Below, piece after piece: positions 1,344-44,639 of a DNA stretch of 64,000 nt. The notes below the pieces were generated by a model, which worked only from the letters and a program-made list of their open reading frames with translations, was not told the origin of the DNA and made no database searches. The stretch spans positions 438,898,001 through 438,962,000 of the forward strand of contig CM097882.1 of the NCBI GenBank assembly GCA_044892505.1, read 5' to 3'. Every line of letters starts with the position of its first letter. Positions within the stretch are counted from its first letter, which is position 1. The position numbers were made by a program, and so were the translations under genes. The DNA is from Schmidtea nova. Lineage: Eukaryota.

Positions 1344-2347
1344 TGTTGGATGACGAGGGAAGACGCATAGAAGCATTCAAAGTCAATAAATATTATCATA
1401 TTGGCAACAATAGATACCGAATAAATATATATCTAGAAAAGTAACCCCCGATCAAATCTCAGCTATCTCAATCTCAATCATTCAAAGTATCAATTGTCCG
1501 TCCCAATCGTTCGAAATCACTTTCAAAAGTAACTCTCTAAAACTCTGATCAATCATTAACTATTGTCTGTCATCAATCAAACTCAAAACCTGTCTAATCC
1601 TTCATTTGTGATCATCAATTAAATCATTGTCTAACAATTTACAACCCTATCTTTGTGATCATCATCTGACTAATTAGTGAATTTTATTTTATCCCCACAA
1701 ACAATCAAAACTGTTATTTTATTAAATTATGAAAAATTTTGTAGTTTAAAACTTTATTTTATTATTAGTTAGATTTTATTATTTTTTATTATTGTAAAAA
1801 ATTTTTTATTTTATTATTAGTTAAAATTTATTATTGTTCATGTGAATGTCGCAAAACAAAATTTATTAAATGTCGTGGCATAAATCGATTTAATTTTCCA
1901 AGTGAAAGGAATTTACTGTAAATAAAACAATTTTAATAAATGTCAGCACAAATTTCAAATTTTCCAGGTGAAAGGAATTTACTGTAAATAAAACAATTTT
2001 AAATGTCAGCACAAATTTCAGTATATAAGGCAATGACAATTTAGTCAAATTGCCATAAAATCAAAGGTAAAATTTTGCGGTTAAATTTTGCTCTCTCAGG
2101 TACAAATCATGTAGAGCTTTTAAAATCGACCGGTTGGTCAAAAACATATAAAATTTAAAACTTGTTGAAGTTAAATTGAAGGTGTGAAAGTATAGAATAT
2201 CTATTTGTACACAATTATCGGTAATAATTTTGTTAATCTTGTTATTAAATAAATCTTATTAACAAACGTTTATTGTCTTAGTTTATTTATATAGGAACCA
2301 CCAACCCCCAGTTGAGATTTCAAATACACATATTTGAGACCTCAACA
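1344..2347 (+). repeat. 5' LTR (1004 bp)
   Basis: Starts TGTTGGATG, ends CTCAACA; no difference from the 3' LTR seen by eye; ~65-bp tandem duplication (1892-2020) just before TATATAA (2022-2028). Confidence 0.97.
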
Positions 2348-2349
2348 TT

Positions 2350-2367
2350 TGGTGCCGTGAACCGGGA
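2350..2367 (+). promoter_or_regulatory. Primer-binding site, tRNA-His type
   Basis: TGGTGCCGTGA 2 nt after the LTR, complementary to the ...UCACGGCACCA 3' end of eukaryotic tRNA-His(GUG). Confidence 0.85.
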
Positions 2368-2597: not shown

Positions 2598-3798
2598 ATG
2601 AGTAATAACAGTACAAGTAGCAGCAATAGTGGAAATAACAGTAATACAGAAAACACCAACAGTAATCATAATTTTATAAAACATTACCAATAGAATCATA
2701 TAAAGGAGACCCTGAAAAGTTCGACGACTTTTTTGCCGAAATCGCACAATATGCAGAGGCTTGCGGATGGACAACAAATGAATTAAAACAACGAATCCCA
2801 TTATATTTAAAGAGATATGCGTTACAGGTATATAATAATTTAGCATGCAAAGGCATCAATTATAATGAATTAGTAAAAAACCTTAGAAAAGAAATAGTAA
2901 TAGATCGAGATTTGCAAAAAATAAATGTAGAAGTAGATACCAAGGAGCCAGAGAATCAGTAGGTGAATATATATACACGATAACAGAATTAGCAAAAAAG
3001 GCATTTGGTGCAGGAGATCACACTAGTGAATTAATTGAGGATCAGTTTTGGAACAGAATCCAAAAATATTTATACAAAGCATTAATTACAATTGAGTATG
3101 AAGACTTAAATGAGTTAGTTCATAAAGCAAAACGTATTGAAGCAATACAAAGAGATAGATTTAAACCAGAGATAGATGCTGTAGAAATTGAAAGACAACC
3201 TGAGGTAAAGCCTGAGTTGAGAAATAAAGATGATAGCATCCCTTGGGAAAAAATGAAACAATTATATTTGAATTTTGTTAATAATAGACGAAGAGTTAGT
3301 CCAAGTAGAAGCCAATCACCTGAAAAAAGGGGAAGGTTTAACAGTCCAGGAAATAAAAATTTCGATAATAGAAATAATTTTAAAGATAGTTATAAAAGAA
3401 ATAATAATAGAGATAGTTTTAGAGACAATCGTTTTGATAATGATAGAGACAACATAGACACTTTTAGACATAGTCGTTCTAGTTATAACAGAAACAGTTA
3501 CAATGGATACAATAGAAATAATAGAGATAATCGCTTTGAATATAATAGAAGAGATAATAGATATAGAGATAATTCGAGAAATAGACAGGATAGCCCGGTA
3601 AGGCGAAATATGTATAATAATGATGGTAGAGATAAAGTAAATTTTAATGGACAAATAAAATGTTATAATTGCCAGAGGTATGGGCACTTAGCAAAAGTAT
3701 GCAATAAACCACGAGCTGATTCACCAATTGGAGTAAGATTTAAAAATGAGCCTGAGATAAAACAGGTAAATAGTGCTGAGCTTGAGATAAAGAGATAA
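2598..3798 (+). pseudogene. gag: Gag with RN-rich low-complexity region and CCHC zinc knuckle, frameshifted
   Basis: CYNCQRYGHLAKVC at 3661-3702; capsid-like segment FFAEIAQYAEACGW...IPLYLKRYALQVY; several single-base shifts. Confidence 0.85.
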
Positions 3799-4232: not shown

Positions 4233-4470
4233 ACACTAAATGTAACGATTGAATCAAATGATAATTATTTTTTAGTATTAAACAAAATTTGCATCCTTGC
4301 ACTAAAGTGAGTAAATTAAAACGAATGGCAAGAGCCAAATGGCCAGGAACCATAGGAAAGAGAGATGTAATAAAATTATATTTTAATGGAATAGAACTAT
4401 TGAATGACGAATATTTAATTGACTATGGGATAAACCCAGTAAGTGATAATATTGTGATAGCTAGTATAGA
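4233..4470 (+). CDS. Ubiquitin-like domain without di-Gly, inside the retroelement polyprotein (one frameshift near 4290)
   Basis: TKVSKLKRM...KLYFNGIELLNDEYLIDYGI aligns by eye with ubiquitin TIENVKAKI...[20 protein letters not shown]. Confidence 0.7.
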
Positions 4471-4705
4471 AAAGCAAAGGATAAATGAAATAATGACACC
4501 AGCACCGTCAGTTGAATTGAGTATAAATGAGGAAAATGATTTTGACAGGTTATTCAGAACATGGGATAAATCACCTAGTGAAACAATGAAATCGATAACG
4601 GGGGAAGAAATTATATTTAAACCTATAGATGATAAATATAGTAAACTACAAGAAACAATAGAAAGAATAGCTGACGAAGCAAAAACGAAAGATGCAGAAA
4701 CATCA

Positions 4706-4732
4706 AAGCGAGGTAGAGGAAGACCTCGAAAA
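4706..4732 (+). CDS. AT-hook motif
   Basis: KRGRGRPRK contains the canonical RGRP core with basic flanks. Confidence 0.8.
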
Positions 4733-4839
4733 TCAGAAATTATAGAAAAATCAGAGAATAGAAAGACAGCAGAACGATTAAGAGAGATTGCAAATCAACA
4801 AAGACATGAACAATCAGAGTATCAAGATGATAGTAATGA

Positions 4840-5200
4840 CGTAAACAAAATAAAAGAAGTAATAAAAGCAATGAATATTAAGCTATTTCCAGAAACAAAG
4901 CCAACAGTACTAATTAAAAATATAACTGAAAGGATGATGTTAATTAAAAAGGATACTAAAGAACTAGCCACAGAGGAGGCAAATGAAAAAACAATATTAA
5001 AAATCCTGTTTAATACAGGGATAGATAAAGATAAAATAATAACGGCCAAGGCATACTTGGCCGCAAGATATAAAAAGCTCATAAAGGAAAATCCAAAAGA
5101 GCAATTAGAAAAAGTAGCAACAATGATGTTTAAAAGATTGAAAGTAGAGGCAATACCATGGATAAAAAAGAAAGGAGGATGGAAAGTATTATATGATAAA
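4840..5200 (+). CDS. Bcl-2-like domain
   Basis: BH2-like PWIKKKGGW (W codon at 5159; cf. Bcl-xL PWIQENGGW) about 35 aa after degenerate BH1-like ILFNTGIDKDKII (cf. LFRDGVNWGRIV). Confidence 0.7.
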
Positions 5201-5280
5201 AATACGACGAATAAAGAGAGTGATACAGATGAGGTAATAAAACAATTAATAAAGAAAGCAACAGTAAAACCAAAGACAGA

Positions 5281-7140
5281 GAGTAAATCGATAACCTCCA
5301 TAGTAATAGTCATAATCACTTTGTTATTAGATTTAATCAAGGGGGGGGGCAATGCAATGGTAGCATATGATTGTCAAAATCCAAAGTGGGGACAAAAATA
5401 CTCGCTGTTAGATGTTGAAAATTGCCCTGAAGCAAATCCAACTAAATTAATCATGTCAGAGCCTCAAATATTCCATGTTTATCAAGAATCAGACTTTATT
5501 CATACGGAGGCTAAAGAGTGTATAGTAAAGTACCAGGAGGAAGCATATATATGTCATGCTGGGGCAAGAACAGTGTTAAAACCTACGTGGACACCCGAAG
5601 CAGTAATATTGTCGCCAATAGAGTGTGAAGATGCATTCAAAACAAATAAAGTAAAATATAGCGGTCATAAAGAAATCGAACTAGAAGCAAGGATAGGAGC
5701 AAAAATGAGACAAGATGTAAATGTCGTGGGATGGACATCAAAAGGTGGATATTGTGAAAGAGGGAGAATATACAATATAGGGTGAAAAACTGAGTAATGT
5801 TGTAGTAAGGAGACACTACATGGTAGAACTGAGAAAGTTCAAAGCATCATTCGACAGCAGCTCAAAGAAAATGATGATATACAAATTTTGTACATTAGAA
5901 GAATCTTATTGCGATACAGGAGAATCAATGCTAATATACAAAATAGATAAATACGATTGCCAGTTAACAAAATTAAAATCATTAAAGTTTAGGGAAATCA
6001 AAGGAAAACAGTTCACAGAAGTAGACTCAAAAAGAGTGAGAGATCAAAAAAGGAAAACAACAATTGTACAAGAAAAAGATACACCAACAATATATATGTC
6101 AGAATCTGAAAACGAAGCAATGAGGTTCGTTAGTAAAAGGAAAAGTGTAAAATGTGGTAAGGAAATAATACAAACTAATTATGAAGGGATATACATAAGT
6201 AAAGAAGAAGTCAAAGATGCAAAACAAAAAGTAAATTAATTCGACGTCAAACTTGCATCATATTTCAACAATAAAATCGATTTTTTCTATAATAATCAAC
6301 TAGTACAATTAGATAAAGTATATCAATCAACAATTATGAGCGATTGCAAACTCAACAGAGAAATATTAAGGACAAAAATGGCAGTCGCGGTAACAAACCC
6401 AGATTTAATGGCACCAATAATCTTCTCAGAAGAAGGAACATTTGCAAGGATAGTAGGAGAAGTGATACAGACATTTCAATGTAAACCTGTTAGTGTATCA
6501 TTAGCAACAAACAATCAGTGCACAAAAGAGCTACCAGTAATATATAATGGAGAAAAGGTATACCTTCAACCAATTACTAGAATACTAACAGAAAAAACAT
6601 ATATACCGAGAAAAATAGAAAAATGCACTAACTTATTAGACCCATTATACAAAATAAATGACGAAATGTGGATATCTATGTCAGATAGAAAGGAGGCAAT
6701 GAAACCCCTCAAATTAGAACTCATAAAGTTAGAAAAAAGATTAGAGTTTAAAGAAATCAACGATATGGACAGCAATGGTATATATACAAGAGAAGCTATA
6801 GAAAGTGCAAGAAAACACATGCTATTTCCAAACGAAAAAGAAAGAGTACTGTCAATAATGGTGAACAGAGTTATCGAAGGAAGTTACGGAGGAAATTACA
6901 ACTTTGATGTAAGAGTAGAAAGTAGCATATAAAGTACTATATAGCATATGGGGATATTTTGCAGTCCTTGGAAACATGTTTTCTACAATCTTAGGTATAT
7001 ATTATACGGTTGCATTACTAAAAATGATATGTTCTTCTCTAGTATCACTGAGACAGCTAAAACAAGTATTTGGAAATTCATATAAATTATTAGCATGTTT
7101 GTGCCCATTTATAGCTAAATATCTTAAATCGGCGAAACAC
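5281..7140 (+). pseudogene. env: Envelope glycoprotein, chuvirus/herpes-gB (class III)-like; disrupted by frameshifts and in-frame stops
   Basis: Hydrophobic SITSIVIVIITLLLDLI then AYDC...YSLLDVENC; GEVIQTFQCKPVSV, CTKELPVIY...YLQPITRIL, GIYT...LFPNE; TM WGYFAVLGNMFSTILGIYYTVALLKMI. Confidence 0.85.
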
Positions 7141-7439
7141 GACAAGGAAATACGTTTAATAAAAGTCCAAAGGAATGAAGAAAGGCAATTATTGGTAGAT
7201 GATGAAAACGATGAGGAAATAATTAAAGCACATATATCACATGAAGGAAATGTACCACAACAAGGACTATATGAAAACCAAAGAGAACAACTAAAAGAGC
7301 TACAAGAAAATATAGAAATCAAAATTCCTAGAGAAAACAAGAATTGTCACTGTGAACCTAAAAAGATATATGGTTGTTATAGCTTAGAAGTCGAAACAAT
7401 GGAACGATTAGATGCAGCAAACGAAGCAAGACCAAGACT

Positions 7440-10400
7440 TAAAATAATTATAAACAATATAATCATAAATGCATTAGTAGATACAGGAGCAGCAACATCC
7501 TTAATTAGAGAAGATCAACTGACAGATGATCAAAAAAGAAATATTATGAGCACAACGGATAAAGTAGTATCGCTATCAGCACATTGTATTCCACTAAAGG
7601 GAGACATAGAACTAATAGTCGAAACACTAGAACAGGTAATAAACCACATATTTAAAGTGGTACAAGAATGTTATAGCATATATATATTGGGAATCGATAT
7701 ACTCAACAAGTTAGAAAACTGCATCATAGATTTAACAGATAATACGATAAAGAGAAAAGCAATTAAACATAAATCCAAGTTCACAGAAGTTGTTGCATTA
7801 GAAGCATTTGAATTGGAATATGAATGCGATCATATAATTCCCTTAAAAGTTAACATCAAAAGTGAGGACACTTTTATTTTTGAGCCAGAAACGGCAATTA
7901 TACAAAATCAGAATATAATGCTAACCAATGAATGCGTAATTCCGAGAAAGGGAATAATACCATTGAGAATAGCAAATTATGAAAAAAGTAATGTTAAAAT
8001 ACACAAAGGTACGAAATTGGGAAAATTATTCAAAGGTGAATTAGAGAAAACGTACGAAGTCAGTGAGACAAGCGTGATGAATGATAACGACAAGGGAGTA
8101 GTCGAACCTAGTAAGATAAATAATATAAAATCATATGACAAAGTAAAAATTAATAATAAATACTTAACAATAACACAACAAACACAACTACAAACATTGA
8201 TAGATAAATATAGTGATGTTTTTGCAAAACACGAATTTGATCTAGGAGATACCGATATAATCAAACATGTAATAGATACAGGTAATGCTAGACCAATAAA
8301 ACAAAGACCATACAGCGTACCATATAAGTTAAGAGAGGAAATAAAACGACAAATCAAAGAACTAAACGATGCAGGTGTAATAAAACAGAGTTTTTCACAG
8401 TGGGCATCACCCATTGTACCCGTTAAAAAGAAAGATGGAGAAATAAGAATGTGCATTGACTATCGCAAATTAAATGATGTAACAGTAAAAGACTCATACC
8501 CATTCCCAAAAGCACAAGAGCAATACGATAAACTTAGGGATGCTAAGTATTTTTCAGTCATTGATGCCAATAAAGGGTATATGCAAATTCAAATGGAAGA
8601 AGGAGATGCGGAAAAAACAGCATTTGTTATTGAGGATGGTTTATATGAGTACACACGACTACCTTTTGGGTTAACTAACGCACCAGCTACATTTCAGCGT
8701 TTAATGAACACAATATTAGTAAATGTACAACACTGCGCAGTTTACATGGATGATATACTAATATCATCAAAAACATTTGAGGAACATTTAAAAGATATAA
8801 CAAACGTACTTGAGAGACAAAGAAAAGCAAGGATAAAAATTAAACCAACCAAATGTAAATGGGCAGAACCATCAGCATTATTTTTAGGGCATATAGTTAC
8901 AGTTGAAGGGATAAAACCAAATCCAGAAAAAATAAAAGTTGTAAACAAATTCCCGATACCAAAAACAGTGCAACAAGTACAAGGGTTTTTAGGTTTAACA
9001 AGCTATTACCGTAAATTCATACAAGATTATGCAAAGATAGCATCACCTATAATAGAACTAACAAAAGGAATTAAAACAAAAGGAGAATGCAAAGATGTGT
9101 TAATAGTACAAGAAATTAACAATAAAGTTAACAAGATACAAAAGAAGTGGACAAAGGAACATCAAGAACATCATTCGATAAACTAAAAGAAAGATTGATA
9201 ACAGCACCAGTGTTAAGGTACCCAGATTTCGAAAAACAATTTATAGTAATGACGGATGCCAGCGGGAAAGCCGTAGGAGCAGTCTTAGGTCAAGAGGAAG
9301 AGAAAGGGAAAGATTACGTAATAACATATGCTAGTAAAACATTAAAAGGAGCACAGCTGAGGTATTCAACAATAGAGAAAGAATGTTACGCAATAGAATT
9401 TGCCCTAAAACAATTCAAACCATACATATATGGAACTGAAGTAATAATAAGAACGGACCATAAACCATTAGAAGGCTTATGGAAACATAAGGATACATCA
9501 AGTAGACTACTAAAATGGGCAATGAAAATACAAGATATGCACTTGAAAATTATATATAAACCAGGTAGAATAAACAAAAACGCAGATGCACTGTCAAGAA
9601 TACCAGAATTAGGAGCACTTGAAATATTTGCACTAGTAGCAGAAAAGCCAATCGATATATATGAGTAACAGATGAAAGACCTAGAAATCAGCAAAATAAG
9701 AAATGAAATCAGAAAAGAAAGTAATTCAAAGTATAAAATATCAAAGAGATTAGTAGTAATAGAGGATTTCAGTGGTAAACAATTAATAGTAGTACCTCAA
9801 AAATTAAGACAAATACTTCTATTACAATATCACGATGGAGCATTAGGAGGTCACTTATCATCTAGAAAAACAGCAAGTAGATTATTACAAAAATATTACT
9901 GGAAGAGTTAAAGAAAGATGTTAAGAGATGGTGTAACGCGTGTACAATATGTGCAACAAGAAAAAATACAGGCACAAAAACAAAAGCGCCGTTACACCCT
10001 ATTCCAGCAACAACATCACCAATGGAACTATGTGCAATGGACTTCCTATGTAAATTACCTACTACAATTAATGGGAATAAACATATACTAGTATTTAGTG
10101 ATTATTTTACTAGATGGGCGGAAGCATTCCCAACAAAAGATGAAACAGCAGAAACTGTTGCTAAATTACTCATAGAAAAAATAATTTTTAAGATAGGTAC
10201 ACCTAAAAGATTATTAACAGATAAAGGAACAAATTTTACTAGCGAATTAATAAAAAGGGTAGCTAGCATTTTTAACATGCAAAAGATCAACACAACAGCG
10301 TATCACCCTCAAACTGATGGGCTAGTAGAAAGGTTTAACGGGACATTATTAAGCAGACTAGCGGTCTTTGTAGGCAAAAATCAAAATGATTGGGACGAAT

Positions 10401-10900
10401 ACGTAAGTCAATGCACATACATCCATAATATCACTCCAAATGAAACAACAGGGTATTCACCGTATTACTTAATGTTCTTAAGAGAACTAGCAACACCAAT
10501 AGATACAATTTTTGAACCTCGAGTATCACAATATTTAGACGCACCAGATTATGTCACACTAATGCAGGAAAAACTGCAAGAAGTGTATAAAGTAGCTAAT
10601 TTAAAAGTCAAATTTAGACAAGAACAGTACAAAGCCGACTATGACAAAAATAGTAAACCACATAACTTTAAAGTAGGTGATAAGGTTAGACTTATGTCAC
10701 CACATGTAGGAAAAGGAAAAACAACAAAGTTAGCAAGACCATATAAAGGTCCATACGAAGTAGTAAAAGTAATAAATGAGAATCTACACCTACAAAAGCA
10801 CAAAAATGAGGATCCAATAGTAGTACATGTTAACAGATGCAAGTTAGCAGAGGCAGAGGTCACGATAGATAAACCTCACAAGTATAATCTTAGGTCTCAT
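7440..10900 (+). pseudogene. pol: Pol: aspartic protease, RT, RNase H, integrase
   Basis: LVDTGA (7480), MCIDYRKLN, YMDD (8743), TDAS...YSTIEKECYA, HHCC (9831-9952), D..D..E, GPY and YNLRS; frameshifts near 9170 and 9905, TAA at 9666. Confidence 0.97.
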
Positions 10901-10903
10901 AAC

Positions 10904-11688
10904 AAGCTAATAATATCGGCTATCTTCTTAACAATCATAACAGTTGTTGGTTCAACCAAAACATTAGAATTTGACAAATTATTAATAAAAATATCAACAA
11001 ACGAAGTGAGGGTATTTATCATAAACACGGGAGTAATCGACATATACATGCAAACACCAGATAAAGAAAATCCAAAGATGATAAAAAGAAAAGAGGACAG
11101 TACAACCAAGGAAATCGAAAGAGGAAACTATGTTAACTTCACAAAACTAACACCTAATACAATATACAGAATCTGCATACAGAGAGACACAGATACAACA
11201 ATATGGAGATGCAAGAGAATAAAAACAGAACAGAATAAAAAACAAAGATCCAAGCATAACAAAAACGACGACAATAACACCAGATAGAACAGAAAGCACA
11301 AGAACAAAGACAACGACAACAAACAATATATTAAATATCACTGCACATATAGACAAAATACCAACAAACACTAGAATAACAAAATTCCAAAAACAACAAC
11401 AAAAACAAAAACATATCAAAATAAAACAAGGAAAACCAATAGTTACATAACTTAGAGGAACTACAAGCATTTCAAAAAAGGGATAAAAAGCCACATTGGC
11501 CATATTATGTAATCACAGCATCGATAATAACATTAGCAGTCTTAGCTTTAGTAACTAGCACACAAATATACAAAAAGTACAAATGGAAAAGGCAGCGGTA
11601 TTGGAGCCGACTGGTCAAAGATGTACCAGGACATTTCCATTTTGATAAATACATACCTGGCATATACACAATATCAACACAAGTATGA
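10904..11688 (+). pseudogene. Type I membrane module fused after integrase: signal peptide, FN3-like domain, Thr-rich stalk, TM, tail ending STQV
   Basis: LIISAIFLTIITVVGS is in frame with integrase; FN3 signature FTKLTPNTIYRICI; after frameshifts TKTTTITPDRTESTRTKTTTT, TM YYVITASIITLAVLALVTS, KKYKWKRQR, TGA at 11686-11688. Confidence 0.7.
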
Positions 11689-11809
11689 TGCAAACTGGTC
11701 AATAATATTTATTAAAATTATATATATGTATATCTATATTTTGGTGTATGAGGGAAAACCAGCATTACACTTCAAATTTAAAATTGATTATTTAATTTGT
11801 AGAAAGAAA

Positions 11810-13669
11810 ATGTACAATAGCAATCAACCCGACAGACAATCAAATAGACAATTCAATCAGCACCCAAACAAACAATTCAAACAACACAACCAACCCAATC
11901 GTCAACACCCATACAAACAAAGTCAATCCCACAGTCAATCGTTCGAAAAGTACGATTAAATGTTCAAACAAAACGAGCAACCCGCATCTTATCAAAAATA
12001 CACCTGTTTTATAAACAAACTGGGAAACAGTTTTTATAAAAATAGCCAAAACAAAATCAGTACAGACGGACAACCCATCACCATAAGAAATTTCCCTAAC
12101 CAAGTCTGCACACCCAACGAAACGAAGATAGACATCGAAGAGAGAGAACTGAGCATAATCAAATTTAATGATGCTCGAAGAGTCAAACTCCGAGAACTCA
12201 TTGGGAGTTTCGACCAATATAAAAATGTGGATAAAGCGGTGGTAGAAGGTAAAAAAGTACCTCACCAGTTAACATTCCACATCACAAAAACCGAGGTATC
12301 GATTTGCCAAAACAAAATCCCACTTATGACAACAAGCAATTGCTCGCTCGTAATCAAATTAATCAGAAAAGACAGGAGCATGAGTAACGATTTTAACGAG
12401 TTACTAATACAAATGAATAGCCTACCCTGCGTTATTGCGATAGAAATAATTTATATTCCAACAATGCCAAATCCGTTCAGGCAACTAGAGAGCATTCCAT
12501 CATCTATCAAATTAACAGAAGATCTAATAAAAAGAAGAATCTCATTCACCCAACAAGAACTGTCTATGGAAGAAAGGCATGAATTAATAGTGTTTCTGGA
12601 TATCAAGTTAATAACGGACATCAACGGAAACCAAAGGCCAGTAGAAATCAGCATAAGAGACGATCAGGGCAGTACAATATATGATAAAAAGATAACCCCA
12701 AGATCAATGATCAGAGATTTCAAAATTGAAAGAACCAGAGCAACTAAAGAAAACATTATAGGAAACGAGGATGAATATCAGGCATTAAATGATGTCAGAA
12801 GCATATTATATGGAAAAATAATAATAGGATTCGGAATAATGGATAAACTCAAAACACTGGCAATGAAAATCAATTATGTCATGGGGATCCGAGAGATGGA
12901 AGAAGATCAGTTCATGTGCACATTCGTGAAGAATGTAGAACCGCACAAAATTAAACTATCCAACTTGGCATACCAAGTTGTAAGTCATCATAAACGATGG
13001 TTCAAGGACAAGAGGGTAAACGAATTATTAAGAAGACCAGAACCATTTTCAGGATCAGAAACCACCAAATTGGTCAAAATAATATACATGATAACAGAAA
13101 CCCAATGGGAAGAGGTAATTAAATGGAACCAAAGAAGATTCCAAGAAGAGATGGATCCAAGAAATAGAGCAAACATAGAAAATAAAGGACAATCCAATAA
13201 CGATAACAACTGGGAAAGTGAATCAGAAGGAGAGGAGGAAGAAATTCTACAAACATCTACAGAAGAATCAACAGCTAGTGACGATGACTTTATTTTCATC
13301 AGCGAAACAAGAACAACCAACATGGAAATGAGGGAAACAAAAAGAGAACCAGTCGTACGACAGGAAAAAATGGAGGAATGTGACCTGGATCCAGAAGAGG
13401 AATATTTTTCACTTGAAGAAGAAGTAGAAATGGATCAGATACCGAGTACAAGTTATCAAGAAACCGATATAGGGTCAGAACCCGAGATCGAAATATTGCC
13501 GGAAGAACTCACAACCACAGAAAAGGATACCTGCGTTGGAAAACAATTCAGGAAGGACCTTTTAACATTCAGAAAAGAACAGAGGAAGACAATCATCCAA
13601 GTGAAAGAAAAAGAAATCGAACTCGTCATATCAGATAAAGGTAATGAGGGCATTACCTTGACGGCCTAG
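11810..13669 (+). CDS. Accessory 3' ORF: Q/N-rich N-terminus, REX4/ISG20-like DEDD exonuclease fold with degenerate active site, acidic C-terminus
   Basis: ATG 11810 in frame with 11960 across one TAA (11957-11959); IVFLDIK...EISIRDDQGSTIYDKKITP...ILYGKIIIGFGIMD...IKLSNLA at 12587-13092. Confidence 0.7.
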
Positions 13670-13676
13670 GGAGGTA
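13668..13676 (+). promoter_or_regulatory. Polypurine tract
   Basis: AGGGAGGTA immediately before the 3' LTR. Confidence 0.8.
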
Positions 13677-14680
13677 TGTTGGATGACGAGGGAAGACGCA
13701 TAGAAGCATTCAAAGTCAATAAATATTATCATATTGGCAACAATAGATACCGAATAAATATATATCTAGAAAAGTAACCCCCGATCAAATCTCAGCTATC
13801 TCAATCTCAATCATTCAAAGTATCAATTGTCCGTCCCAATCGTTCGAAATCACTTTCAAAAGTAACTCTCTAAAACTCTGATCAATCATTAACTATTGTC
13901 TGTCATCAATCAAACTCAAAACCTGTCTAATCCTTCATTTGTGATCATCAATTAAATCATTGTCTAACAATTTACAACCCTATCTTTGTGATCATCATCT
14001 GACTAATTAGTGAATTTTATTTTATCCCCACAAACAATCAAAACTGTTATTTTATTAAATTATGAAAAATTTTGTAGTTTAAAACTTTATTTTATTATTA
14101 GTTAGATTTTATTATTTTTTATTATTGTAAAAAATTTTTTATTTTATTATTAGTTAAAATTTATTATTGTTCATGTGAATGTCGCAAAACAAAATTTATT
14201 AAATGTCGTGGCATAAATCGATTTAATTTTCCAAGTGAAAGGAATTTACTGTAAATAAAACAATTTTAATAAATGTCAGCACAAATTTCAAATTTTCCAG
14301 GTGAAAGGAATTTACTGTAAATAAAACAATTTTAAATGTCAGCACAAATTTCAGTATATAAGGCAATGACAATTTAGTCAAATTGCCATAAAATCAAAGG
14401 TAAAATTTTGCGGTTAAATTTTGCTCTCTCAGGTACAAATCATGTAGAGCTTTTAAAATCGACCGGTTGGTCAAAAACATATAAAATTTAAAACTTGTTG
14501 AAGTTAAATTGAAGGTGTGAAAGTATAGAATATCTATTTGTACACAATTATCGGTAATAATTTTGTTAATCTTGTTATTAAATAAATCTTATTAACAAAC
14601 GTTTATTGTCTTAGTTTATTTATATAGGAACCACCAACCCCCAGTTGAGATTTCAAATACACATATTTGAGACCTCAACA
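13677..14680 (+). repeat. 3' LTR (1004 bp)
   Basis: Same length and apparent sequence as 1344-2347. Confidence 0.97.
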
Positions 14681-14972
14681 CAGTTGATTTGAGGGAAATC
14701 TTCTTCCTAAAAATAACATTTAAAATCGATAGTTATAATAAGGAATTTAAATTGTCATAATAGAAATTACCCAATAGGAATTAATGCATCTTGCTTACCC
14801 ATCTATATAGAATTTCTTTCGATCGGGGGAACATGGATATCCTTGACGGGAAGAGGTAGGAATTTTATTCTATAGGTGAGATATAATTTAAGATGCTAAA
14901 TGTTGACAAAAATTTGTAAAAAAATCTTAAAAATTTTTTAATATAAAGTTAGTAACAAATTATGTAATTACT

Positions 14973-15600
14973 TGTTGCCGTTGTCAAGGCCTCGGCAAAT
15001 TTTTGAAAATTCAGAAATTAAAGTTTTAATAAAATTATCATTATAAATATATTTTAAATACAGCAAGTTAGACATTAGGTATAGGGGATAAGTAAAATTT
15101 AGTTAAATTTACTGACACAAAAATATACAAATTTAAAAAGTCTAGAAAATAATAAAGTTTAGTTAAAATTGACAGAAATCAAATACCCCGAATATATGTG
15201 TTGATCAAAGATTATTCAATCTCCGAATTGAGTTTGCGATTATATGCTTAAGTATGAGCTTGCAAATAAAAATAAATGCGCGAAAACCCCTGTGCGTTTT
15301 TATATTGATGGAACTATTTATGTTTTCTTTTAAATTGAAATGAATATCCGTAGTTAAATCGTTGAACAAGGGACGAAAATGGGCATTAAACCTTCTATCG
15401 GTAACACTTGGACCCAGTAGATATTCGGTCAATCATAGTTTTGTATTGACGACGCTCACTGATTGCGAATACCCACCCATTTGTTGCATTACCAACGTTA
15501 CATTGTGACGGGCAACGAGATGGTTAATTCAATATTTTATGTGTTGAATTGTTGATGTGAGCCATAGCAAAGTCAAGGTCATATTGACGATCAACAACCT
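14973..15600 (+). repeat. Degenerate LTR-like relic (family B), internally deleted relative to 27510-29017
   Basis: 14975-15300 matches 27520-27830, and 15345-15600 matches 28775-29011. Confidence 0.7.
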
Positions 15601-15604
15601 ACCA

Positions 15605-20850: not shown

Positions 20851-22861
20851 GTGAGAAAATTTTATTTAAAAAACTTTATTTCCTTTTTGGTCGCCGAAGA
20901 GCCATCATTTTAGAAGAATTTGATCATTTCAGAAAAATTAAATCCTATCCGTAGAATTAAATCATTTCAGAAGAATTTATTCATTACAGAAGAAGGCAGA
21001 AGTTAAGAATCCCTCTAAAGAAGACACCACTTGGTCCTTTGATACTACTAAAAGATCCCGCGTCGTGGAATATTAATGTGAGAATTTGTCTTTATTTTTT
21101 GAGTATGGGATCATCAATCGTCAATACCGTTGATCATCTCATGCCCAGTAACTTGGTTATTTTTATATTTACTTGTTTTATTTATTTATTTATTATTTAT
21201 TCATAATTTATTACTAAAATTTATATGAAAATATTAATTTTATATGTTGAATGACTCGTTTGCCTTTATTTTATTCATTATTCTATTAAGATACTGTCAC
21301 AAATCCCCACATTGAACAACAATTTATTTTACATAATATTTATGGCATAATGATAAAAATAATTTTTTTTTCGCTTCCATACCCCCTGACACCTGTTCTG
21401 GCCTTGTGCCGAACGAGTGGAAGTAGCCTGAGCGGATCGCTGGTTCGATTCGTAATCGATCAGTCCATTTTTCCGACTTCAGATGATACGCCCAAACATC
21501 CATGATCACTTTATCCCAACTGGGGAACAGTAGCTTGGCCAAGGGCAAGGTGTTATATTAATGATCTGTAATTTATAGTAGTGTATTTTATCTGAATTAT
21601 ATTTTAACATAATGTGCACTTAAAACCTGATATTGCATAAAAACACTAATGTCAACACATCCAACAATGTCTTTTCCATCATACAAATTATCAGTACAAG
21701 AATATTCAACTCGTTATTCGCCTTCACTCTCACAACAATTGTCATCTTATCCGAAAATACAAGTAGAATAAAAGCCAATATTGAAAAGAGAATCGTTCAA
21801 AATAATGCTCAAAACTGATAAAATAATCACCACGAAACGAAATATGAAGACAAGTATTGATTGATTTGAACTAAACCTCATTAAATGTATGGTTATCTAA
21901 ATAATTTACTCCAGTGAACCTTGGTTTCGGGAGCCTGAAGTTCTCAAGTGAAGTGTCTCGAAAACTTCGCGTGCACTTTGATCGGGAAATTCACTCTTGA
22001 ACGAAACCGAAATTCACCTTACTTGACGTCGAAAACTATTATGAATTAGAGTTGATTTTGAATGATAACCAAACAAAGATACAAAAGCTGAAATCAAAAT
22101 TTTATTATGAAAATTACTTTAGATTAGCAGATTTGAATCTTTGTGAAAAATTACCGATCAAGAATTTTATTATAAAAGCATTTGTATGGCGGTTGATAAA
22201 TTTTAAGTTATTTCTTTATTTTAATATATTTAGAAAAATTTATGAATTAAAATTTTAGTTATTGTGAAAAATGCAAATCTTAATTATAAAACCAGAATTT
22301 ACTTTTTAAGAATTATATCATGGAAAAATTTAAAGTACCAAAATTTTTATTCTTTTTAAAAAAATAATAAAAAATTTATAAATCGAGCCCTCATATTAGT
22401 TGGAAAAATTAAAATTTTTTTTAAATATAAAAAATATAAATCGAAAATTTTATTGTACTTCATAAAATTCAAATTTTAAAAATTTAACTAAAAAGATTTA
22501 TTGATAATAAAATTATTACTTTATTGTAAAAATTTAATTTTATATTTATGTAATTTATTAGTTCATAAATTAACCCCCACGTTATTATAAAAGATATAAT
22601 ACATCCATATTTGCAAAGCAATACATCCACACCATTCATTAACACCATCTAGTGACTGCATTACCGGTAAACGGTAAATCAATTTACCGGTTTTACCGTC
22701 ATTTTTCCTTTACCGAATTACCGGTAAATTTTAGTTTATTTACCGGTAAAACGGTAAATTAATTAACTTTTTTACGAAATTAAAACAATCTAAATTCTAA
22801 ATAACGATATGAATTACAATGTATAGAAAAGCATTTATATAATAGATATTTATATATCTAG

Positions 22862-22984
22862 ATTCTAGAACAAGAAATTGTTATTTTGCGCACGAGCGAA
22901 TTTTTACTATTCGAGGGTTACACCGCGTAGCCGAGAAGAATAATTTCTTTGAGAGCGCAAAATAACAATTTCTTGTTCTAGAAT
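22862..22984. repeat. 30-bp perfect inverted repeat with a ~63-bp spacer (MITE-like)
   Basis: ATTCTAGAACAAGAAATTGTTATTTTGCGC at 22862-22891; its reverse complement at 22955-22984. Confidence 0.85.
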
Positions 22985-23717
22985 TGTATATTAAATTTTT
23001 CCTGACAGAATATTTTTGCTTTCTTTTAAATACGCATACTATGATATTTAAAAAACAAAGAAAACAAAAATTAAATAAATTTGTTTTATGTTTAAACAGG
23101 TTTAATCAATAGAATACCCAAAATATAAAATTTCTATGTATTGTTTTTTTGGTATCGATTTTTTTTAATGTTTTAAGAGAGAGAAATGAAATAGAAATCT
23201 GAAATAAACACAAAAAATTATAAAACGTATTTTTATCTTGCAGAGTAAAAATGAAATCCAATTGGTTTTCGTATTGCCTACCACTACTAAAACGTGTTTC
23301 AAAGAAATTTGCAGTGACACTCATAATTCAAAAATCGTTTGGAAAAAAACGTATCAAAAATATAACCATCTCTTTTATCCTTTTCATGTAATATTTTTTC
23401 TGTTTTGCTACATTTTATTTTCTAAAATGAGTAGTCCATTTGTATGTTCGTTTTAAACTATAAAAAAAGAAGACATTTATTTTTTATGTACCTACTGTTT
23501 GCACTCTTCTAACACGAAAATAAAAAAAGAAACTTTTTCGGAGTGATAAGTTTACAATTACAATTTTGAGGAAATTAATGAGTAAAATAATAATTGTGTA
23601 TTTTTAAATTACTAATCCATTAATCATTAAAATATCACGGTATGTATTTATAATTTGGTATTAAATTTTGTTGAATATTTACTTGATTAAAATCTTTGTT
23701 GTTAGCCCTATTAAACA

Positions 23718-25698
23718 ATGGAAAGCAACAATTTATCTAACTACGAAAACGAAACCAAAAAGACATTATGGGACTTCTTTTTGCGTAAAGGAAACGATGC
23801 CGCGAAATGCAAGAATTGTAATAAAACTTTAAAATCCGTAGGAGGTTCTACCAGTGGACTACACTATCATCTTAGAAGTCAGCATCAAATTAATTTACTA
23901 AAGCGAGATAAACCAGACCCTTCTACGCAATTCTCTCAAAATAAAAGCGACTGCGCTGTGAGCACTTCAAAGGGTGGTATTATGAATTATTTCAGAAACG
24001 TAGTTGATGATACTCTTCCTGCAGTGATTTCTAGGATGGTAGCAAGGGATGGGTTACCTTTTGAAAAGTTTTGTACCTCTTGTGATTTGAGAAAATTATT
24101 AATTGCAAAAGGATATGATGTCCCAAAATCAGCAAATTCAATCAGAAAAATTGTAATGGATTACGGAGAAAAAATTAGGAATGAAGTACGTGGAGAAATT
24201 TCAAATCATAGCAAAAATGGAAGCAAGTTTAGCCTCACGTTTGATGAATGGACATCCATCAAAAACCATCGTTACATGAATGTAAATGTCCATGTTGAAA
24301 AACTGTTTTGGAATTTAGGCTTAACGCGGTTGCAAGGATCGATGCCTGCAGAAAAATGTTGTGAAACTCTGGAAAAAAAACTTCAGGAATTTGGACTAAA
24401 TTTTAATAGCGTCGTAGCGATAACTACAGATGGGGCAGCAGTAATGAAGAAGGTTGGTGTAGTTTTAAATATACATCATCAGCTATGTTATGCGCATGGA
24501 ATCCAGCTCGCGGTGGTTAAAGTTTTTTTACAAAAGAAAAAGTGAAATAATTGAATTAGCAGAAGAACCAAGTAGTTCCATAGAAGATACCGAAGATTAT
24601 TATGATGAAGATGATGATCTTAATGAAAATTTGATTATAGTAGTAACGGATGATCCAATAGTTCAATGTGATATCTCCCATGAAGAATTATTTCCTATTA
24701 TAAACAAAATACGAAGAGTAGTGAAAATATTTCGAAAGTCACCTACTAAAAATGATGACACTCTTCAAAAGCATGTCATCAATGAATTTGGATCTGAAAT
24801 TTCTTTAATATTGGATAGTAAAACCCGATGGAACAGCTTATTAGCTATGCTGGAACGTTTCTTCAAATTAAAATCCGCTGTGAGAAAAAGTTTAATCGAC
24901 TTGAATGTTGATATCAATTTTTCAGAAAATGAATTAAACTTGGTTAATGAAATGATAAATGCATTGGAACCAATAAAATTGGCAGTTGAATCTCTAGGCT
25001 CCTCAGATTTTACATTATTAAGTGCTGATGTAACACTCAAATTTATGCTTGATGAATTATATGAACAGAATACTGTTCTAAGCAGAGAACTTCAACGTGA
25101 ATTAATCCTTCGAATCGAAGAACGTAGAACAAATTACTCAGATGTGCTTCAGTTCTTACAAAATCCTTTAGAATATGAAATATCAAAGGATAACACAAAT
25201 TATGGATTATTTAATAAACTAAATAAAAGCGCAATAGTCAAAACTATTGTTTCAATTATTGAGCGCTTGGTAATAAATATTGATATAAATAATGAAACAG
25301 AAACTGAATCACCTGAAGATGAGACAATAAATTTGTCCGTAACCGTACCACAACAGTTGACAATGAAAGAACGGTTAAAAATCGCCATTCAAAGGAAAAA
25401 TGAAGTTAATTTTGACACTTTGGCTACTTCACCAATTAAAAACAAAAAGAAAATAGAGAATATCATCAAAAAGGAAATGAATTCTATTGCGGAGGAAAAA
25501 CGCCTTGGAACATATTTGGAATTAGCACAAAAATATTTGCATACAATAAAACCAACGAGTGTGGAGTCAGAAAGAGCCTTTTCTGCTACAGGAAAATTGT
25601 GTACGAAGATTAGATCAAATCTTAATGATCAAACAATAGATACAATTTGTATTTTACGTGGATATTTTGGTAAGCAGAAACATTTAGTTGGTACTTGA
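23718..25698 (+). CDS. hAT transposase with BED zinc finger; one +1 frameshift in a T7 run near 24525
   Basis: WDFF..KCKNC..TSGLHYHL..QH; FDEWTS, TTDGA, CYAH, TRWNS, SVESERAFS. Confidence 0.95.
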
Positions 25699-27509
25699 TC
25701 ATATCATGTGTAAAAATATTTTTTACTCTCTTTGTTTAACGAATTGTGAATGTAATATTTTTTATTTAATAATAATATGTAATAACAATGAATTCTAAAA
25801 CATTTAAATTTTCTATTATTTCTATCATTTTACCGGTAAATTACCGGTAAACCGATAAAGTGATGAATTTTTTACCGTTTACCGGTAAATGAAAATTACG
25901 GTAAATTTGAAGTCCCTAACACCATCCATACTAATACCACATGCAACAGTTATTTAAATACAATACACACACACTATCCATTTCAATCATTAGGATCTCC
26001 TACACTAAAAAATACAAAAAACAATACATCCACTCACCAACATACACAACGTGATTTCATCTAACAGTATTCACTAGCATCGTACATCCAGACAACCCCG
26101 TAAGTATTCATACAATCACATCCATTGTCTATCGGCTATCGCAGTAGTATCATTCCCAACATACAAACACATACAATCACATAAAATCATAACAATAGGG
26201 CATTCATTTCAAACGTACGATAAAATATACATACACACACCTCCGAACTTATTTCAATTTACCTCACCGAACCAAAACACGCCCCACATCCATACAAATT
26301 CGATTTTAATTCACTTTGATCAAATTGGTTTTGATATGTACCCATGAGTAACCCAACAAGCTCAACAAAGACCCCTGAGATAATAATTAACCCCTAATAG
26401 TTCCTGAAAAAACCCCGAAACCAAAATTACCTCTCCCAAAATCGACCATCAACGCTACCTAGTGCTTGAAGCATAGTTCAAACCACCCGATAATCATAAT
26501 ATACTAAAAATAGGTAGAAAACCAAAAATTATCATTTAAAGGAGAACATACGTGTATAATATATATTTTATTGTAGTAAATTATATTGTAATCAAAGAAG
26601 AAAATTCAAGAACTTAAACTTTATTTAGCACAAGTAAAATCTCAGACAACAAATCTTCAAATTCGAGTTTCGTTTTTTTCCAATGAGCACTCAATAGAAA
26701 TTCATAGACAATGAAATGTGAGAGCATTGTTACGAGAAAGGCATTATTCGCCTGGAATTTTCTTTCAATGAGAAATGTGAGAGGTCACTATTGATTTGGA
26801 AATTCTTCTTGAAGCATTTAACCTATGAAACTTCATGATATTTTGTTATTGTTATTGAACTTTAGTTAAATTCCATGTAAAGTGAAAACTACTAGGTGAT
26901 AAAATATTTTCTTTTAAAATAGAATTCCATTTCCAAAATAATCAGATTCGATTTTTTATGGAATATTGCAGGTTTTGAAAATGAATCGGATTATTTTTTT
27001 TGGTTTTTTTTGATGCGCTGGCTGCCATGCTGGATAGAGTGGATCCGTGTAAATTGCATTTGGCTCATAACTTGTTTAACAGGTTTCCTGTTTTCTGAAT
27101 ATATCCTTGTTCGATATAGATCACCAAGTTCGTGCTCCTTGTATGGAGAATATTATTTAATTTTCTAAAACGATCAAATGAGATTTACCTAAAAAACCAA
27201 AACGTAAAACTTACGACAAAGTCTTGGAAATTGATTGAATTCCATTCGAAAATAAATCGATAATTGTATGAGTTGGAAATTGAATTCCATACTCAAAATC
27301 CACCAATCACAAGTGATGATTTCTTGCATTCACACCTATATAGCTGTCAGTGATTAAGGATTTTTACCGATACCTTTAACCTGGGCGTTGGAGATCCGAT
27401 ATTTTCTAAATAAAATGAAAATTTGATAGTTAAATAGCACGCAAAAAACACAAACTTTATCTTTAAAAGGGATTTAATAATTGTATGGGAAAGATATAGA
27501 AATTTCGTT

Positions 27510-29017
27510 TGGTTGCTACTCGTCGCCAAGGCCTCGGCAAATTTTTGAAATTTTTGAAATTAAAAATTTTAGCAAAATTTTAGCTATATTTATTTTTGCC
27601 AGATAGACATTAGGTATAGGGGATAAGTAAAATTTAGTTAAATTTACCGACTCAAAAATATACAAATTTAAAAAATCTTGAAAATAATAAAAATTTAGCT
27701 AAAATCAACAGAATTGTATACCCCGAATATATGTGACGATCAAAGATTTTTCGATCCCCGAATTGAGTTGGCGATGGTATACTTGAGTATAAGAATGCAA
27801 ACAAAAATGAATGCGCCAAAACTCCTGTGTTTGAGACAATACTGTGTATAATAGTTGATTGTGAAAAATCAATAAATTTTTATCGATAAAATTATTTCAT
27901 CTTACTAATTTAAAATGAATATCTGTAATTAAATTGTGATGCTAAATGATGGCTTAAATGTGTTTTGAATGTGTGATATTAGATTTCAGAAATGAGCCTT
28001 GAACAAAAATAGGAAAAGATTCACCGGCTAACTTTAAAAAATGCCAGACATAATCGCCGGGTGGATCAGTGCTTCGCCGAGCTGGAGAAGACGAAAGCAT
28101 CAAACTCCGACGCCCTACAAATCATGACCTCAAGGATGGAGAAATTCCGAGCTCGTTGTAGAGAAATGGAGTCGATCTGGTCCGACAAGGAGACCGTCAA
28201 CAAAATAAAGAAGCAAAACCAGTTGCTTCTACAACAGGCTGAGATTGCGCGCATGCCGGGTTACGATGCGAGACCAGGAGCTCTTGACCGAAAAATTAAG
28301 GGTGGATAGTGGCATCATCGCTGCCATATTGCCGAAATCATCGTTTCCACCGCAGGAATTGTTCCCAGTGAGGATCGAGGAAGAAATTTTGACCCCTCCT
28401 GTTTCGGTGAAATCAACACGTCAGAAACCCAGCAAAGGAGTGATGGCTCGACGAAGACGTCGTCAAGAAGCGCGATTCATGGGGCAAATACGCAGAGTCA
28501 TCAGAAGTGATAGACATAACACTATTGTAATTTCTTGAATTGAACAAATAATATTTTATCTTGTAGATAATGTTGTATTTAATATCATATCTTGTAGTTT
28601 ATGTTTTTTTTTGATGACATTAAAGGTTTTTCTTTTGTGTTTGAATGCCTGAAGAGAATAAATTGATAAAAATCGATACTCGTTTTTGTGAAGAGAATCA
28701 ACTGAGGTTCGTTAGTAAATTTAACTCGATATAGCTTATGATTTTTACAAACTTCAGAATCTGAAAGTAAATAGTGCATAGAAGGGACAAAATGGGCATT
28801 AGACCTTCTATCGGTCGCCCTTGGACCCAGGAGATATTCGGTCAATCATAGTCTTGTATTGACGACGCTCACTGATTGCGAATACCCACCCATTTGTTGC
28901 ATTACCAACGTTACATAGTGACGGGCAACAAAATAGTTATTCTAATGTTTTATGTGTTGAGTTGTTGATGAGAGCCATAGCAACGTCAAGGTCATATTGA
29001 CGATCAACAACCCAGCA
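27510..29017 (+). repeat. LTR-like relic (family B) with a coiled-coil ORF remnant (28061-28538)
   Basis: Ends CCAGCA like the solo LTRs; shares the ACCTTCTATCGGT...GGACCC motif; layout (coiled-coil ORF ending in an RRR-rich tail) parallels 30219-30707; no TSD found. Confidence 0.55.
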
Positions 29018-42500: not shown

Positions 42501-43800
42501 GTTTTGTTTATGTTAATGGTTAATTGTTGTTTGCCGTAAGTTTTAATGTTTGTGCCATTTGCTGCACATAGGTTGTAGTTTCCTTATTTTAAGGATTGAA
42601 ATAAGTAACTTGGTAACAAACTAACTATTGAATCGGAATCAACAAGAAAATTTATATTTTTGCTTTGCACCGTGAATGTTTCGTAGTCGCCAAATATCGG
42701 TGCTGTTATTGGAGACTTTAATTGTTTTCCGGATTTTTGTCGTGGAAAGTACAAGGTGTGTTGCACTTGAAAGCTTTTTCCTCAAATCTGTTATGAAAAT
42801 GACACCAATTTTCATTTTGTATGTAGTTGTTGTTTGGGTTATTGTAACGGTTAAAGTTTAGTTTTTGTTCTGTGCAATTGTTTTGATTGTTTTTTTTTGA
42901 GCTGGTTTTTTTTCGTTACTCTCGCTTGTACCTCTTCTAAATCGTTCCGGAGGTTCTTGTTTTCTGTTATGACCTCGTTGACTTTCTTTATTAAAGAGTT
43001 CAGTAGAAGGTTAGTATCGTTGTAAGGGTTGTCTCGTTCTTGGCGGTTTTCTTGCTTATTTTCCCACGGGGGCTGTTTTCGGTATGTTTTGCAAACTGTT
43101 GGGAATATTTCGTCATTTATTTTGTCCGCGATATCGGCTACTTTGTCGAGGCCTGTGCAGTCGTTTGTGGTTAAGATGCGCCTTATTTCTTGTGGCATTG
43201 CCCTCAAAAATAGGTCTTTCACGAAATCATTTTGACGAGCACTTGTTATTTTGGGTTGTAAAAATTCTAATTTGCTCTTTAGATTTCGCAGAAATTCACT
43301 TGGTTTGTCATTTCCAAGCTGTATATCTTTTAAGCAAGACTCCAATACTTCCCTCCTGTTCACCTTATATCTATTTAATAAGGTTGTATATAGTAAATTA
43401 AATGGGTCGTCACTTTTCGCTATTTCGTCAATTCAGTCTGCAATTTCATTTAAAATATGGCTAGGTAGGGCAGCTATTTTGTGGGAGCATAAACGTTTTG
43501 TAGATTTGATTCCAGACAGTGTCAAAGTTAGTTTTGAGAATTCTAACCATTTTTGGGGTGTGCCGTTCTCATCTGTAAAGTAATTTGAAATCTTTGTCTT
43601 GGAGTTTTTTATTGAATTTATGGTGTGATGGTTTTCAGGGGTGTAATAATAGTTGGTGTTCTATTGTTGAGTGGGTGTGGTTTCGTTGTTGTGTGTTTGG
43701 GGATTATTGGTTAGGTTTTGTTGGTTCGATGCCATTTGTCTTTATGTATAGTGTTGTTTTATTTGTTTGTTGTGAAAAAAATGAGAGTCGTTAAAAGATA
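39531..43800 (-). mobile_element. Decayed Ty3/Gypsy element; LTR pair not resolved
   Basis: Gag (MASNQQ ~43730; LGNDKPSEFLR), RT (GDYRTLN, AYLDDIL), RNase H (YSTFDRELLA), integrase (VHVDLVG, SDQGKQF); minus-strand PPT GGGGGAAG before TGTTATG at 39531. Confidence 0.92.
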
Positions 43801-44639
43801 TGGTCTACTGTGTTCGACCAACAGAGACGGTAGTCTTTATACCTCTTTAGTAGGTATGCTAAAAGATTTCCCGTTTGAAAAACATAAAAAAATTTCGCGA
43901 AAATGTATCGCTGTTTTTATTTCTGACACCAGTTATTATGTGTAGTTATTATTGGTTAGTATTATTTAATTAGTAAATTGCTGTGTAAAATGAAATTATT
44001 GAAGGGCCCAAAAGAGTCTCCCAGAACTTATTGTGGGGACAATTGGGGTGCTGGTTTTGTTTGTGGGTGAATGTATGCGGGTATGTAAGTAAACAGATTT
44101 TGTGTTTGTGAATTAACAATTAAATCAACGATAAATAGATTAAAACTTTTATTAACCAAAATATTTTATAAACACTACTCACGTAAATTTACGAATAATG
44201 TTGATCTTTTTTAGAAAGTTCGATTTTGAAATGTACAATTTGTGTTCTTTATTCTCCGGATGGTAAGATAAGGTAGCTTGAAATTTCTTTTCTTTGAAGG
44301 TTCCAGTATTTTCTGTACTCGGAATTTTTTATTAGTTATGTATTTTACTTCTGATTAGGTTCTAGGATAATTTGAGTTCTATTATAATTCTATTTCTTTA
44401 GTTAGTTTTGTTTTCACTGGTAGTTATTTCCAATCTTTGTTATTTTCAACTTCTTTAAATCTTTCCATAGTAATTTCGGTTAACTTTTTTAATATTTCCT
44501 TGGATATTTCTTTTGGCTTGTTTTCACTTGAAATAATTTGTTTGATATTGTTTATTGATTTTTTTAATTTATGATTTGGCTTACTATAGTAATTTACTAT
44601 AGCAAGCCAAATTCAAATTTATAATTTGAAATTTGATAA

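Follow-up and report, generated by a model that had tools for sequence, protein, structure and literature searches.

Can a retroelement carry a viral fusion glycoprotein in one reading frame with its Gag and its enzymes, and how would such a protein be made? The question is raised by a stretch of 64,000 nucleotides of the Schmidtea nova genome (assembly GCA_044892505.1, contig CM097882.1, positions 438,898,001 to 438,962,000 of the forward strand; hereafter the window), in which a preliminary description had placed a chuvirus/gB-type Env between Gag and Pol, with the Env transmembrane segment (TM) in frame with the protease (PR) and reverse transcriptase (RT). [quoted passage not shown] The gag-env-pol order holds in the sister copies, as does the Env-TM-PR-RT fusion, while the anatomy first given proved incomplete: Gag lies in the same frame, and this frame runs past the integrase into a second membrane module.

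One frame from Gag to beyond the integrase

A DNA search of the element's own genome returned 428 candidates, of which the best 40 were scored; 39 of 41 copies were aligned, with one truncated and one rearranged copy left out. Six of 20 full-length copies hold a single stop-to-stop frame of 3073-3082 amino acids extending from Gag to beyond the integrase, and in a protein search of the genome with Env, 26 of the 75 scored matches lay in stop-free frames of at least 3054 amino acids. The 3,038-amino-acid frame encodes, in order, Gag (with a single CCHC knuckle), a linker containing the motif RGRGRPRK, a Bcl-2-like domain, TM1, Env, TM2 with a tail, and PR, followed by a spacer, RT, RNase H (RH), integrase (IN), TM3, a beta-rich domain, a stalk rich in Thr, TM4 and a basic tail. 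On one sister copy, Pfam gave the order zf-CCHC, Bcl-2, PF24664 (5-638 of 653, E 2.2e-88), RVP, RVT_1, RNase H and integrase; the PR-RT spacer, about 125 amino acids long, has no Pfam dUTPase match. Element length is 13.3-14.0 kb across copies, most of which are about 97-99% identical across the frame, and LTR pairs were found in 15 of 20 sister copies, the two LTRs being 97.5-100% identical.

Each junction of the frame was followed through the copies. The ectodomain, TM and PR share one frame in 18 of 19 other loci, and among the 39 aligned copies the stretch from TM2 to PR is open in 37, both exceptions being different frameshifts, each confined to a single copy. The frame is open from ectodomain to PR in 34 of the 39, from knuckle to Env in 32 and from integrase to the last TM in 35, and the entire aligned frame is open in 16, with disabling breaks scattered and mostly at positions broken in a single copy. 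Since the TM-to-PR stretch is open in 37 copies and its exceptions are confined to single copies, the Env-protease fusion is not due to chance, and no stop between the two is typical of intact copies.

The same order recurs outside this family. Two further families in the genome, at five loci (L103-L112), share 38-39% identity with it in Env and 51-53% in RT, and they encode single frames of 3393-3401 amino acids in which the domain order is kept and a hydrophobic segment stands at each of the same four borders. Among database relatives, 20 proteins were taken from the 150 best of 1148 matches, chosen mainly by length or by sequence beyond Env; Env is followed by a protease in 11 of the 20 scanned, and the others are truncated inside Env or shortly past it, or have a different layout.

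Some features of these relatives stand apart. The two further families carry four CCHC knuckles, a Bcl-2-like domain and a longer (325-amino-acid) post-integrase lumenal module. Six of the database proteins (P0004, P0005, P0006, P0008, P0011 and P0015) have two to four tandem protease-like DTG domains after the Env tail, and P0004 has an additional one after the integrase.

The decayed copy in the window

In the window itself, the frame of the open reading frame (ORF) at 6976-9186 is open back to 6919, as had been noted, giving 755 amino acids that start KVAYKVLYSIWGYFAVLGNMFSTILGIYY and continue through LVDTGA (7474-7491) into RT. Pfam places Monjiviricetes_fusion (PF24664) at residues 5-103 of this piece (E 1.9e-12), RVP at 169-266 and RVT_1 at 502-660. 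The opening at 6919 is no true gene start: a short deletion just upstream creates it, and the deletion junction, the one lesion of this copy that was tested, occurs only once genome-wide. The ectodomain lies upstream in three pieces (4265-5785, 5781-6239 and 6240-6932, the last matching PF24664 at E 1.2e-43), and along it the frame shifts near 5755-5785, meets a stop at 6237-6239 and suffers the short deletion near 6908-6920. Altogether some dozen indels that shift the frame, together with several stops, break the coding region, whose identity to the reference copy is 93%. The features of the element are as follows.

1340-1343 and 14681-14684, target-site duplication CAGT, flanking both LTRs
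1344-2347, plus strand, 5' LTR, TG...CA, 1004 nt, identical to the 3' LTR
2350-2367, plus strand, primer-binding-site-like stretch with a TGG start, 2 nt past the 5' LTR
2598-3798, plus strand, Gag: capsid-like region, RS/RD-rich stretch and CCHC knuckle (3655-3705), with frameshifts and stops in this copy
4709-4732, plus strand, AT-hook-like motif RGRGRPRK in the Gag-Env linker, from sequence
4985-5182, plus strand, Bcl-2-like domain (BH1/BH2-like region; PF00452), then the hydrophobic TM1
5288-5356, plus strand, TM1, putative internal Env signal peptide by hydropathy, with a predicted signal-peptidase site before MVAYDC
5357-6932, plus strand, Env ectodomain, class III (chuvirus G/herpes gB-like), broken in this copy
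6949-7050, plus strand, Env membrane-proximal helix and TM2
7051-7422, plus strand, Env cytoplasmic tail or linker, in the same frame as PR
7423-7716, plus strand, aspartic protease, LVDTGA at 7474-7491 (RVP, E 1e-7)
8422-8898, plus strand, RT core, YMDD (RVT_1, E 2.5e-35)
9225-9536, plus strand, RNase H, out of the RT frame in this copy (RT_RNaseH, E 1.7e-36)
9790-10900, plus strand, integrase, core at 10016-10309 (rve, E 1.7e-10), zinc finger broken in this copy
10904-10954, plus strand, TM3, second internal signal-like hydrophobic segment, directly 3' of the integrase
10955-11230, plus strand, beta-sandwich domain, likely FN3/Ig-like (Atlas lead, low-confidence model)
11231-11688, plus strand, last part of the long frame: stalk rich in Thr, TM4 (11503-11571) and a basic tail, with a frameshift in this copy
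11555-13669, plus strand, ORF2, overlapping the end of the long frame, split by a stop in this copy
13662-13676, plus strand, purine-rich tract ahead of the 3' LTR
13677-14680, plus strand, 3' LTR, 1004 nt

The direct TG...CA LTRs, the CAGT duplication and the Pol order PR-RT-RH-IN are those of Ty3/gypsy elements. The TGG-starting site and the purine tract sit at the expected places; one exact pattern search found no tRNA end matching the former. Membership in BEL/Pao was rejected; the domains specific to that superfamily, which we take to be Peptidase_A17 and DUF1758/1759, are absent from the Pfam scan of the sister frame.

Both 1004-nt LTRs are identical despite the heavily broken coding region between them, a combination that could have come about if helper elements copied a dead template in trans, by LTR gene conversion, or through collapse in the assembly. 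Within each LTR a 45-nt unit is repeated at 66-nt spacing (1892-2002 and 14225-14335). Around the element lie dispersed repeats of other families (1-522 with 22386-26181, and 14979-15604 with 27521-29017), and the strong strand-composition skews at 40001-45000 and 56001-59000 are possibly further minus-strand elements.

Env has a class III fold and is constrained as strongly as RT

The reading of Env as a chuvirus/gB-type glycoprotein is borne out by profile and by modelled structure. A model built from 112 sequences (predicted local distance difference test, pLDDT, 89.7), which includes a 48-residue helix at 297-344, gave 116 matches to the PDB at E<=0.001; every one of the 37 listed is herpesvirus gB, the best at E 5.9e-14 with a TM-score of about 0.44. 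In a viral library the best matches were chu-like glycoproteins (E 1.8e-36). The predicted structure is thus a class III, chuvirus/gB-type fold. Ten cysteines are nearly invariant across the 112 sequences, and all 14 ectodomains counted have 14 cysteines, with a furin motif in none of them.

Ahead of the AYDC with which Env begins, 17 element proteins have a hydrophobic stretch, 16 of them with a small residue at the predicted -1 position, and in 78 stand-alone glycoproteins the AYDC motif stands at residue 11-65 (median 24), directly after the N-terminal leader.

Selection was gauged from variant sites common to at least three aligned copies, which trace a few subfamilies and are not independent events. 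By this count Env is under purifying selection of a strength matching RT, with 17 synonymous and 2 nonsynonymous shared variants (ratio 0.03) compared with 66 and 7 in RT (ratio 0.03); the Env tail has 4 and 1. No aligned copy has an in-frame Env deletion.

Modules on either side of Env and Pol

Gag is recognized by zf-CCHC at E 2.2e-4 in the window copy, with Retrotrans_gag at just E 0.28 in a sister copy. The RGRGRPRK motif resembles an AT-hook, and a GRP[KR] motif stands ahead of Env in 4 of 14 element polyproteins. The Bcl-2 profile PF00452 matches at E 5.7e-5 in the window and at E 7.9e-7 in a sister copy, where the score is slightly under the Pfam cut-off (30 vs 31.4 bits), and a profile of seven element Bcl-2-like domains matches Bcl-xL at E 6e-6. 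In six relatives that were measured, 51-81 residues separate the GGW motif of the domain from the Env start downstream. Among relatives the domain is optional (P0008, P0009, P0017 and P0019 vs P0004-P0007 and P0010).

A module consisting of a signal-like segment, a lumenal-looking stretch and a TM follows the integrase in all six polyproteins that extend past it, namely those of the element family, the two sister families, P0004, P0007 and P0018, the last being the least clear; the five counted have 2-8 N-glycosylation sequons. In the element family the first folded part of this module is likely an FN3/Ig-like beta-sandwich, as judged from a predicted structure. The Atlas feature fn3 (0.88) serves as a lead only, and the seven-stranded model has a pLDDT of 56, its three-row input alignment being probably scattered, so that the prediction is near single-sequence. 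VIA comparison of this pLDDT-56 model gave Z 7-8 and a root-mean-square deviation of 2.5-3.7 over 73-89 residues; most rows were FN3, and the top two were other Ig-like folds. The domain has no match in Pfam, PDB sequences or Foldseek at E<=0.001, and 589 candidate proteins of 1649-5249 amino acids yielded no homolog of the module at E<=10. The product is likely a second, cell-surface protein.

Downstream, ORF2 (847 amino acids in a sister copy) starts in overlap with the end of the long frame. Its Atlas feature is RNase_T (0.94), and it is 26-27% identical to the ORF2 of the two sister families; for one of them, ORF2 gives an ISG20L2 match at E 5.8e-7. Pfam scans of ORF2 gave nothing useful. 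We suggest from these sequence matches that ORF2 has a DEDDh/ISG20-like exonuclease fold whose catalytic motifs are degenerate in the element family. In the two sister families the DEDDh motif is apparently intact.

A proposed polyprotein threaded through the endoplasmic reticulum

How could one chain hold both cytosolic enzymes and an envelope? The four hydrophobic segments alternate with domains that are necessarily cytosolic (Gag and Pol) and domains that look lumenal (Env and the stalk), and the simplest reading is a polyprotein threaded through the endoplasmic reticulum (ER). We consider it probable that a single 3,038-amino-acid polyprotein would cross the ER membrane four times and then be cut apart, a view drawn here wholly from sequence and predicted structure. 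Gag and the Bcl-2-like domain would be cytosolic, and TM1 would serve as the Env signal peptide, with signal peptidase cleaving ahead of MVAYDC and TM1 left behind as the C-terminal anchor of the Gag/Bcl-2-like piece. The disulfide-rich Env would be lumenal, and TM2 would bring the chain back to the cytosol, where PR-RT-RH-IN would form a loop tethered at both ends. TM3 would then act as a second signal, sending the FN3/Ig-like domain and the glycosylated stalk to the lumen, and TM4 would anchor the post-integrase protein with type I topology, making it a candidate for the fusogen's partner in attachment. Signal peptidase would free this C-terminal module as well as Env.

In this scheme Gag and Pol would stay tethered to the membrane until cleavage by the element's own protease, which would be concentrated there and release Gag and the enzymes. 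Gag would be anchored C-terminally, the reverse of retroviral matrix, and because of this the cores would likely assemble after release and be enveloped later. The preliminary description had predicted about equal amounts of Env and Pol; with Gag also in frame and tethered by the Env signal peptide, translation would give Gag, Env and Pol at 1:1:1. Equal synthesis of the three would follow only if the RNA is unspliced, and GT..AG joints, 0 of the 8 listed in four contig runs of unrecorded kind, are uninformative on splicing.

We suggest more tentatively that these elements may be endogenous enveloped viruses that combine a flavivirus-like signal-peptidase polyprotein with an entry machinery of two components, a class III fusogen before Pol and an FN3/Ig-like attachment protein after the integrase, and with a Bcl-2-like protein whose tail anchor is the Env signal peptide and which would prevent the death of the producing cell. 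If this is true, the attachment protein occupies the site where other retroelements keep env. For the attachment partner that is missing for gB-type envelopes, the post-integrase protein of predicted type I topology offers a concrete candidate. A compact, high-copy family also makes the assembly testable in the host, as the one frame predicts signal-peptidase termini, a fixed topology and a C-terminally anchored Gag.

Several observations weigh against the account of a threaded polyprotein. The copies surveyed are the best-scoring matches and so lean young. The four-pass topology comes from simple hydropathy with no trained predictor, and TM2 is followed by a semi-hydrophobic second helix, where the number of passes was deduced to be odd, because Pol must be cytosolic, and was not measured. 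Two relatives, P0009 and P0017, end shortly after the Env TM without a protease, as cut records or as true exceptions. The assignment to FN3 is weak, and between families the post-integrase modules show hardly any similarity in sequence (best E 0.009, with a poor alignment of five sequences). Shared variants number 5 synonymous and 8 nonsynonymous in the beta-sandwich (ratio 0.39) and 3 and 10 in the stalk (ratio 0.88), both indicating weak selection, and 1 and 4 in the Bcl-2-like domain. Finally, the Env ectodomain of the element family has no N-glycosylation sequons, compared with 1-4 in 13 relatives and a median of 4 in stand-alone glycoproteins, which tells against a glycoprotein facing the lumen.

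Alternative readings of the single frame

The frame could be real and yet yield the tethered 1:1:1 polyprotein in small amounts or for a short time, with splicing, internal initiation or selective degradation giving an excess of Gag. Capsids need far more Gag than Pol, and single-frame gag-pol is common in Ty3/gypsy elements; Tf1, an element with one frame, reportedly reaches Gag excess through degradation of its Pol products. One copy has 12 slippery-type heptamers in a -1-compatible phase, the kind of finding to be expected in AT-rich DNA. However, no stop or frameshift common to many copies lies between Gag, Env and Pol, and the two other families retain the same single frame; we regard this explanation as possible, with an appreciable but minor share of the weight. 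A further reading is that Env and protease became joined by accident in this copy, through decay or in the assembly, functional elements having separate env and pol frames, as the heavily broken window copy might suggest. This is refuted by the copy survey and is to us vanishingly improbable, the junction being open in 37 of 39 copies, in the two further families and in 11 database proteins.

What Env is for could also be read differently: Env and the C-terminal module may be kept as membrane scaffolds, or for passage in vesicles or from cell to cell within the animal, and not for free infectious particles. A stop in Env would also cost the element its Pol, so that an open frame is by itself forced by the position of Env, and the Env of this family has neither sequons nor a furin site. 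How gB-type elements are transmitted is stated to be unknown in the Discussion of PMC13524379. On the other side, the amino-acid constraint (ratio 0.03), the 14 invariant cysteines and the complete gB-like fold exceed what mere frame keeping would leave, and in-frame Env deletions number 0 among the 39 aligned copies, and we consider it unlikely that membrane scaffolding or local passage is the whole function.

Comparison with known systems

In the Flaviviridae the C-terminal end of the capsid protein is the signal peptide for the envelope protein that follows, a cut by signal peptidase parts the two, and the enzymes come next on the cytosolic side. This strategy is our working analogy, with no homology claimed (PMC5402940, PMC7601889, as far as these were consulted), and the window element differs in being an integrating LTR element with a class III fusogen.

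The gag-env-pol layout that the preliminary description pointed out is not new: flatworm elements that have it are in print (in the consulted parts of PMC6431247 and PMC13524379). Chary and Hayashi (PMC13524379) describe GAG-ENV-POL errantiviruses with envelopes of the HSV/gB type (HSV, herpes simplex virus) in Nematoda, Bryozoa and Platyhelminthes and list nine flatworm elements; like the window element, these have a Ty3/gypsy Pol, env between gag and pol, a gB-type ectodomain bounded by signal and TM, and multiple copies. The nearest known relative is their Smed_errantivirus_3, for which about 175 of 246 residues of an Env segment are identical (71%, counted by eye). How gB-type retroelement envelopes act without herpes gD/gH/gL is stated there as open. 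The main text of PMC13524379, the figures being outside this scope, has none of the terms 'polyprotein', 'single ORF', 'in frame', 'fused', 'Bcl', 'fibronectin', 'FN3' or 'exonuclease', and the one-frame topology, post-integrase module and ORF2 of the window family are absent from it.

Arkhipova and Yushenova (PMC6431247, in the parts consulted) report an in-frame env between a BCL2-like motif and PR in the planarian Burro/GYPSM1 elements and call it the first case of env lying in frame between gag and pol; the window family shares this placement. Burro elements exceed 30 kb, with an ORF of 4,873-5,140 amino acids and BIR, RING, MATH and ankyrin domains, compared with 13.3-14 kb and 3,038 amino acids in the window family, and the text consulted does not mention a post-integrase membrane protein in Burro. 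Membership among these giant elements was rejected on size and on the domains: Pfam scans of 2,999 residues of the frame and of its N-terminal 405 gave no match to any of the four at E<=0.5. Burro also has a dUTPase-like domain between PR and RT, a place taken in the window family by the spacer of about 125 amino acids. Neither the four-pass topology nor the post-integrase FN3/Ig-like module turned up in the main texts of PMC6431247 and PMC13524379 or in literature searches; they may be covered by Sacco 2022, the 2026 Burro1 paper (as summarised in PMC13465017), the paper that named Burro, or figures.

Captured glycoproteins are known from other lineages. The non-canonical nematode endogenous retroviruses (Sacco et al. 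2022, doi 10.1099/jgv.0.001739, as cited in PMC13524379) are of the Metavirus type and, like the window element, carry a captured RNA-virus glycoprotein before pol. The parallel first drawn with BEL/Pao elements bearing a chuvirus glycoprotein (Dezordi et al. 2020, as cited in PMC13524379) holds for the glycoprotein family, PF24664, but not for the retroelement superfamily, as the window element is Ty3/gypsy with no BEL/Pao domains found. For ORF2 the closest comparison is with bdelloid LTR elements, which likewise have an extra exonuclease-fold ORF downstream of pol (PMC5408684, in the part consulted); the bdelloid ORF3 is RNase D-like, of the DEDDy type, and replaces env, whereas the putative ISG20-like DEDDh product of the window family stands alongside it.

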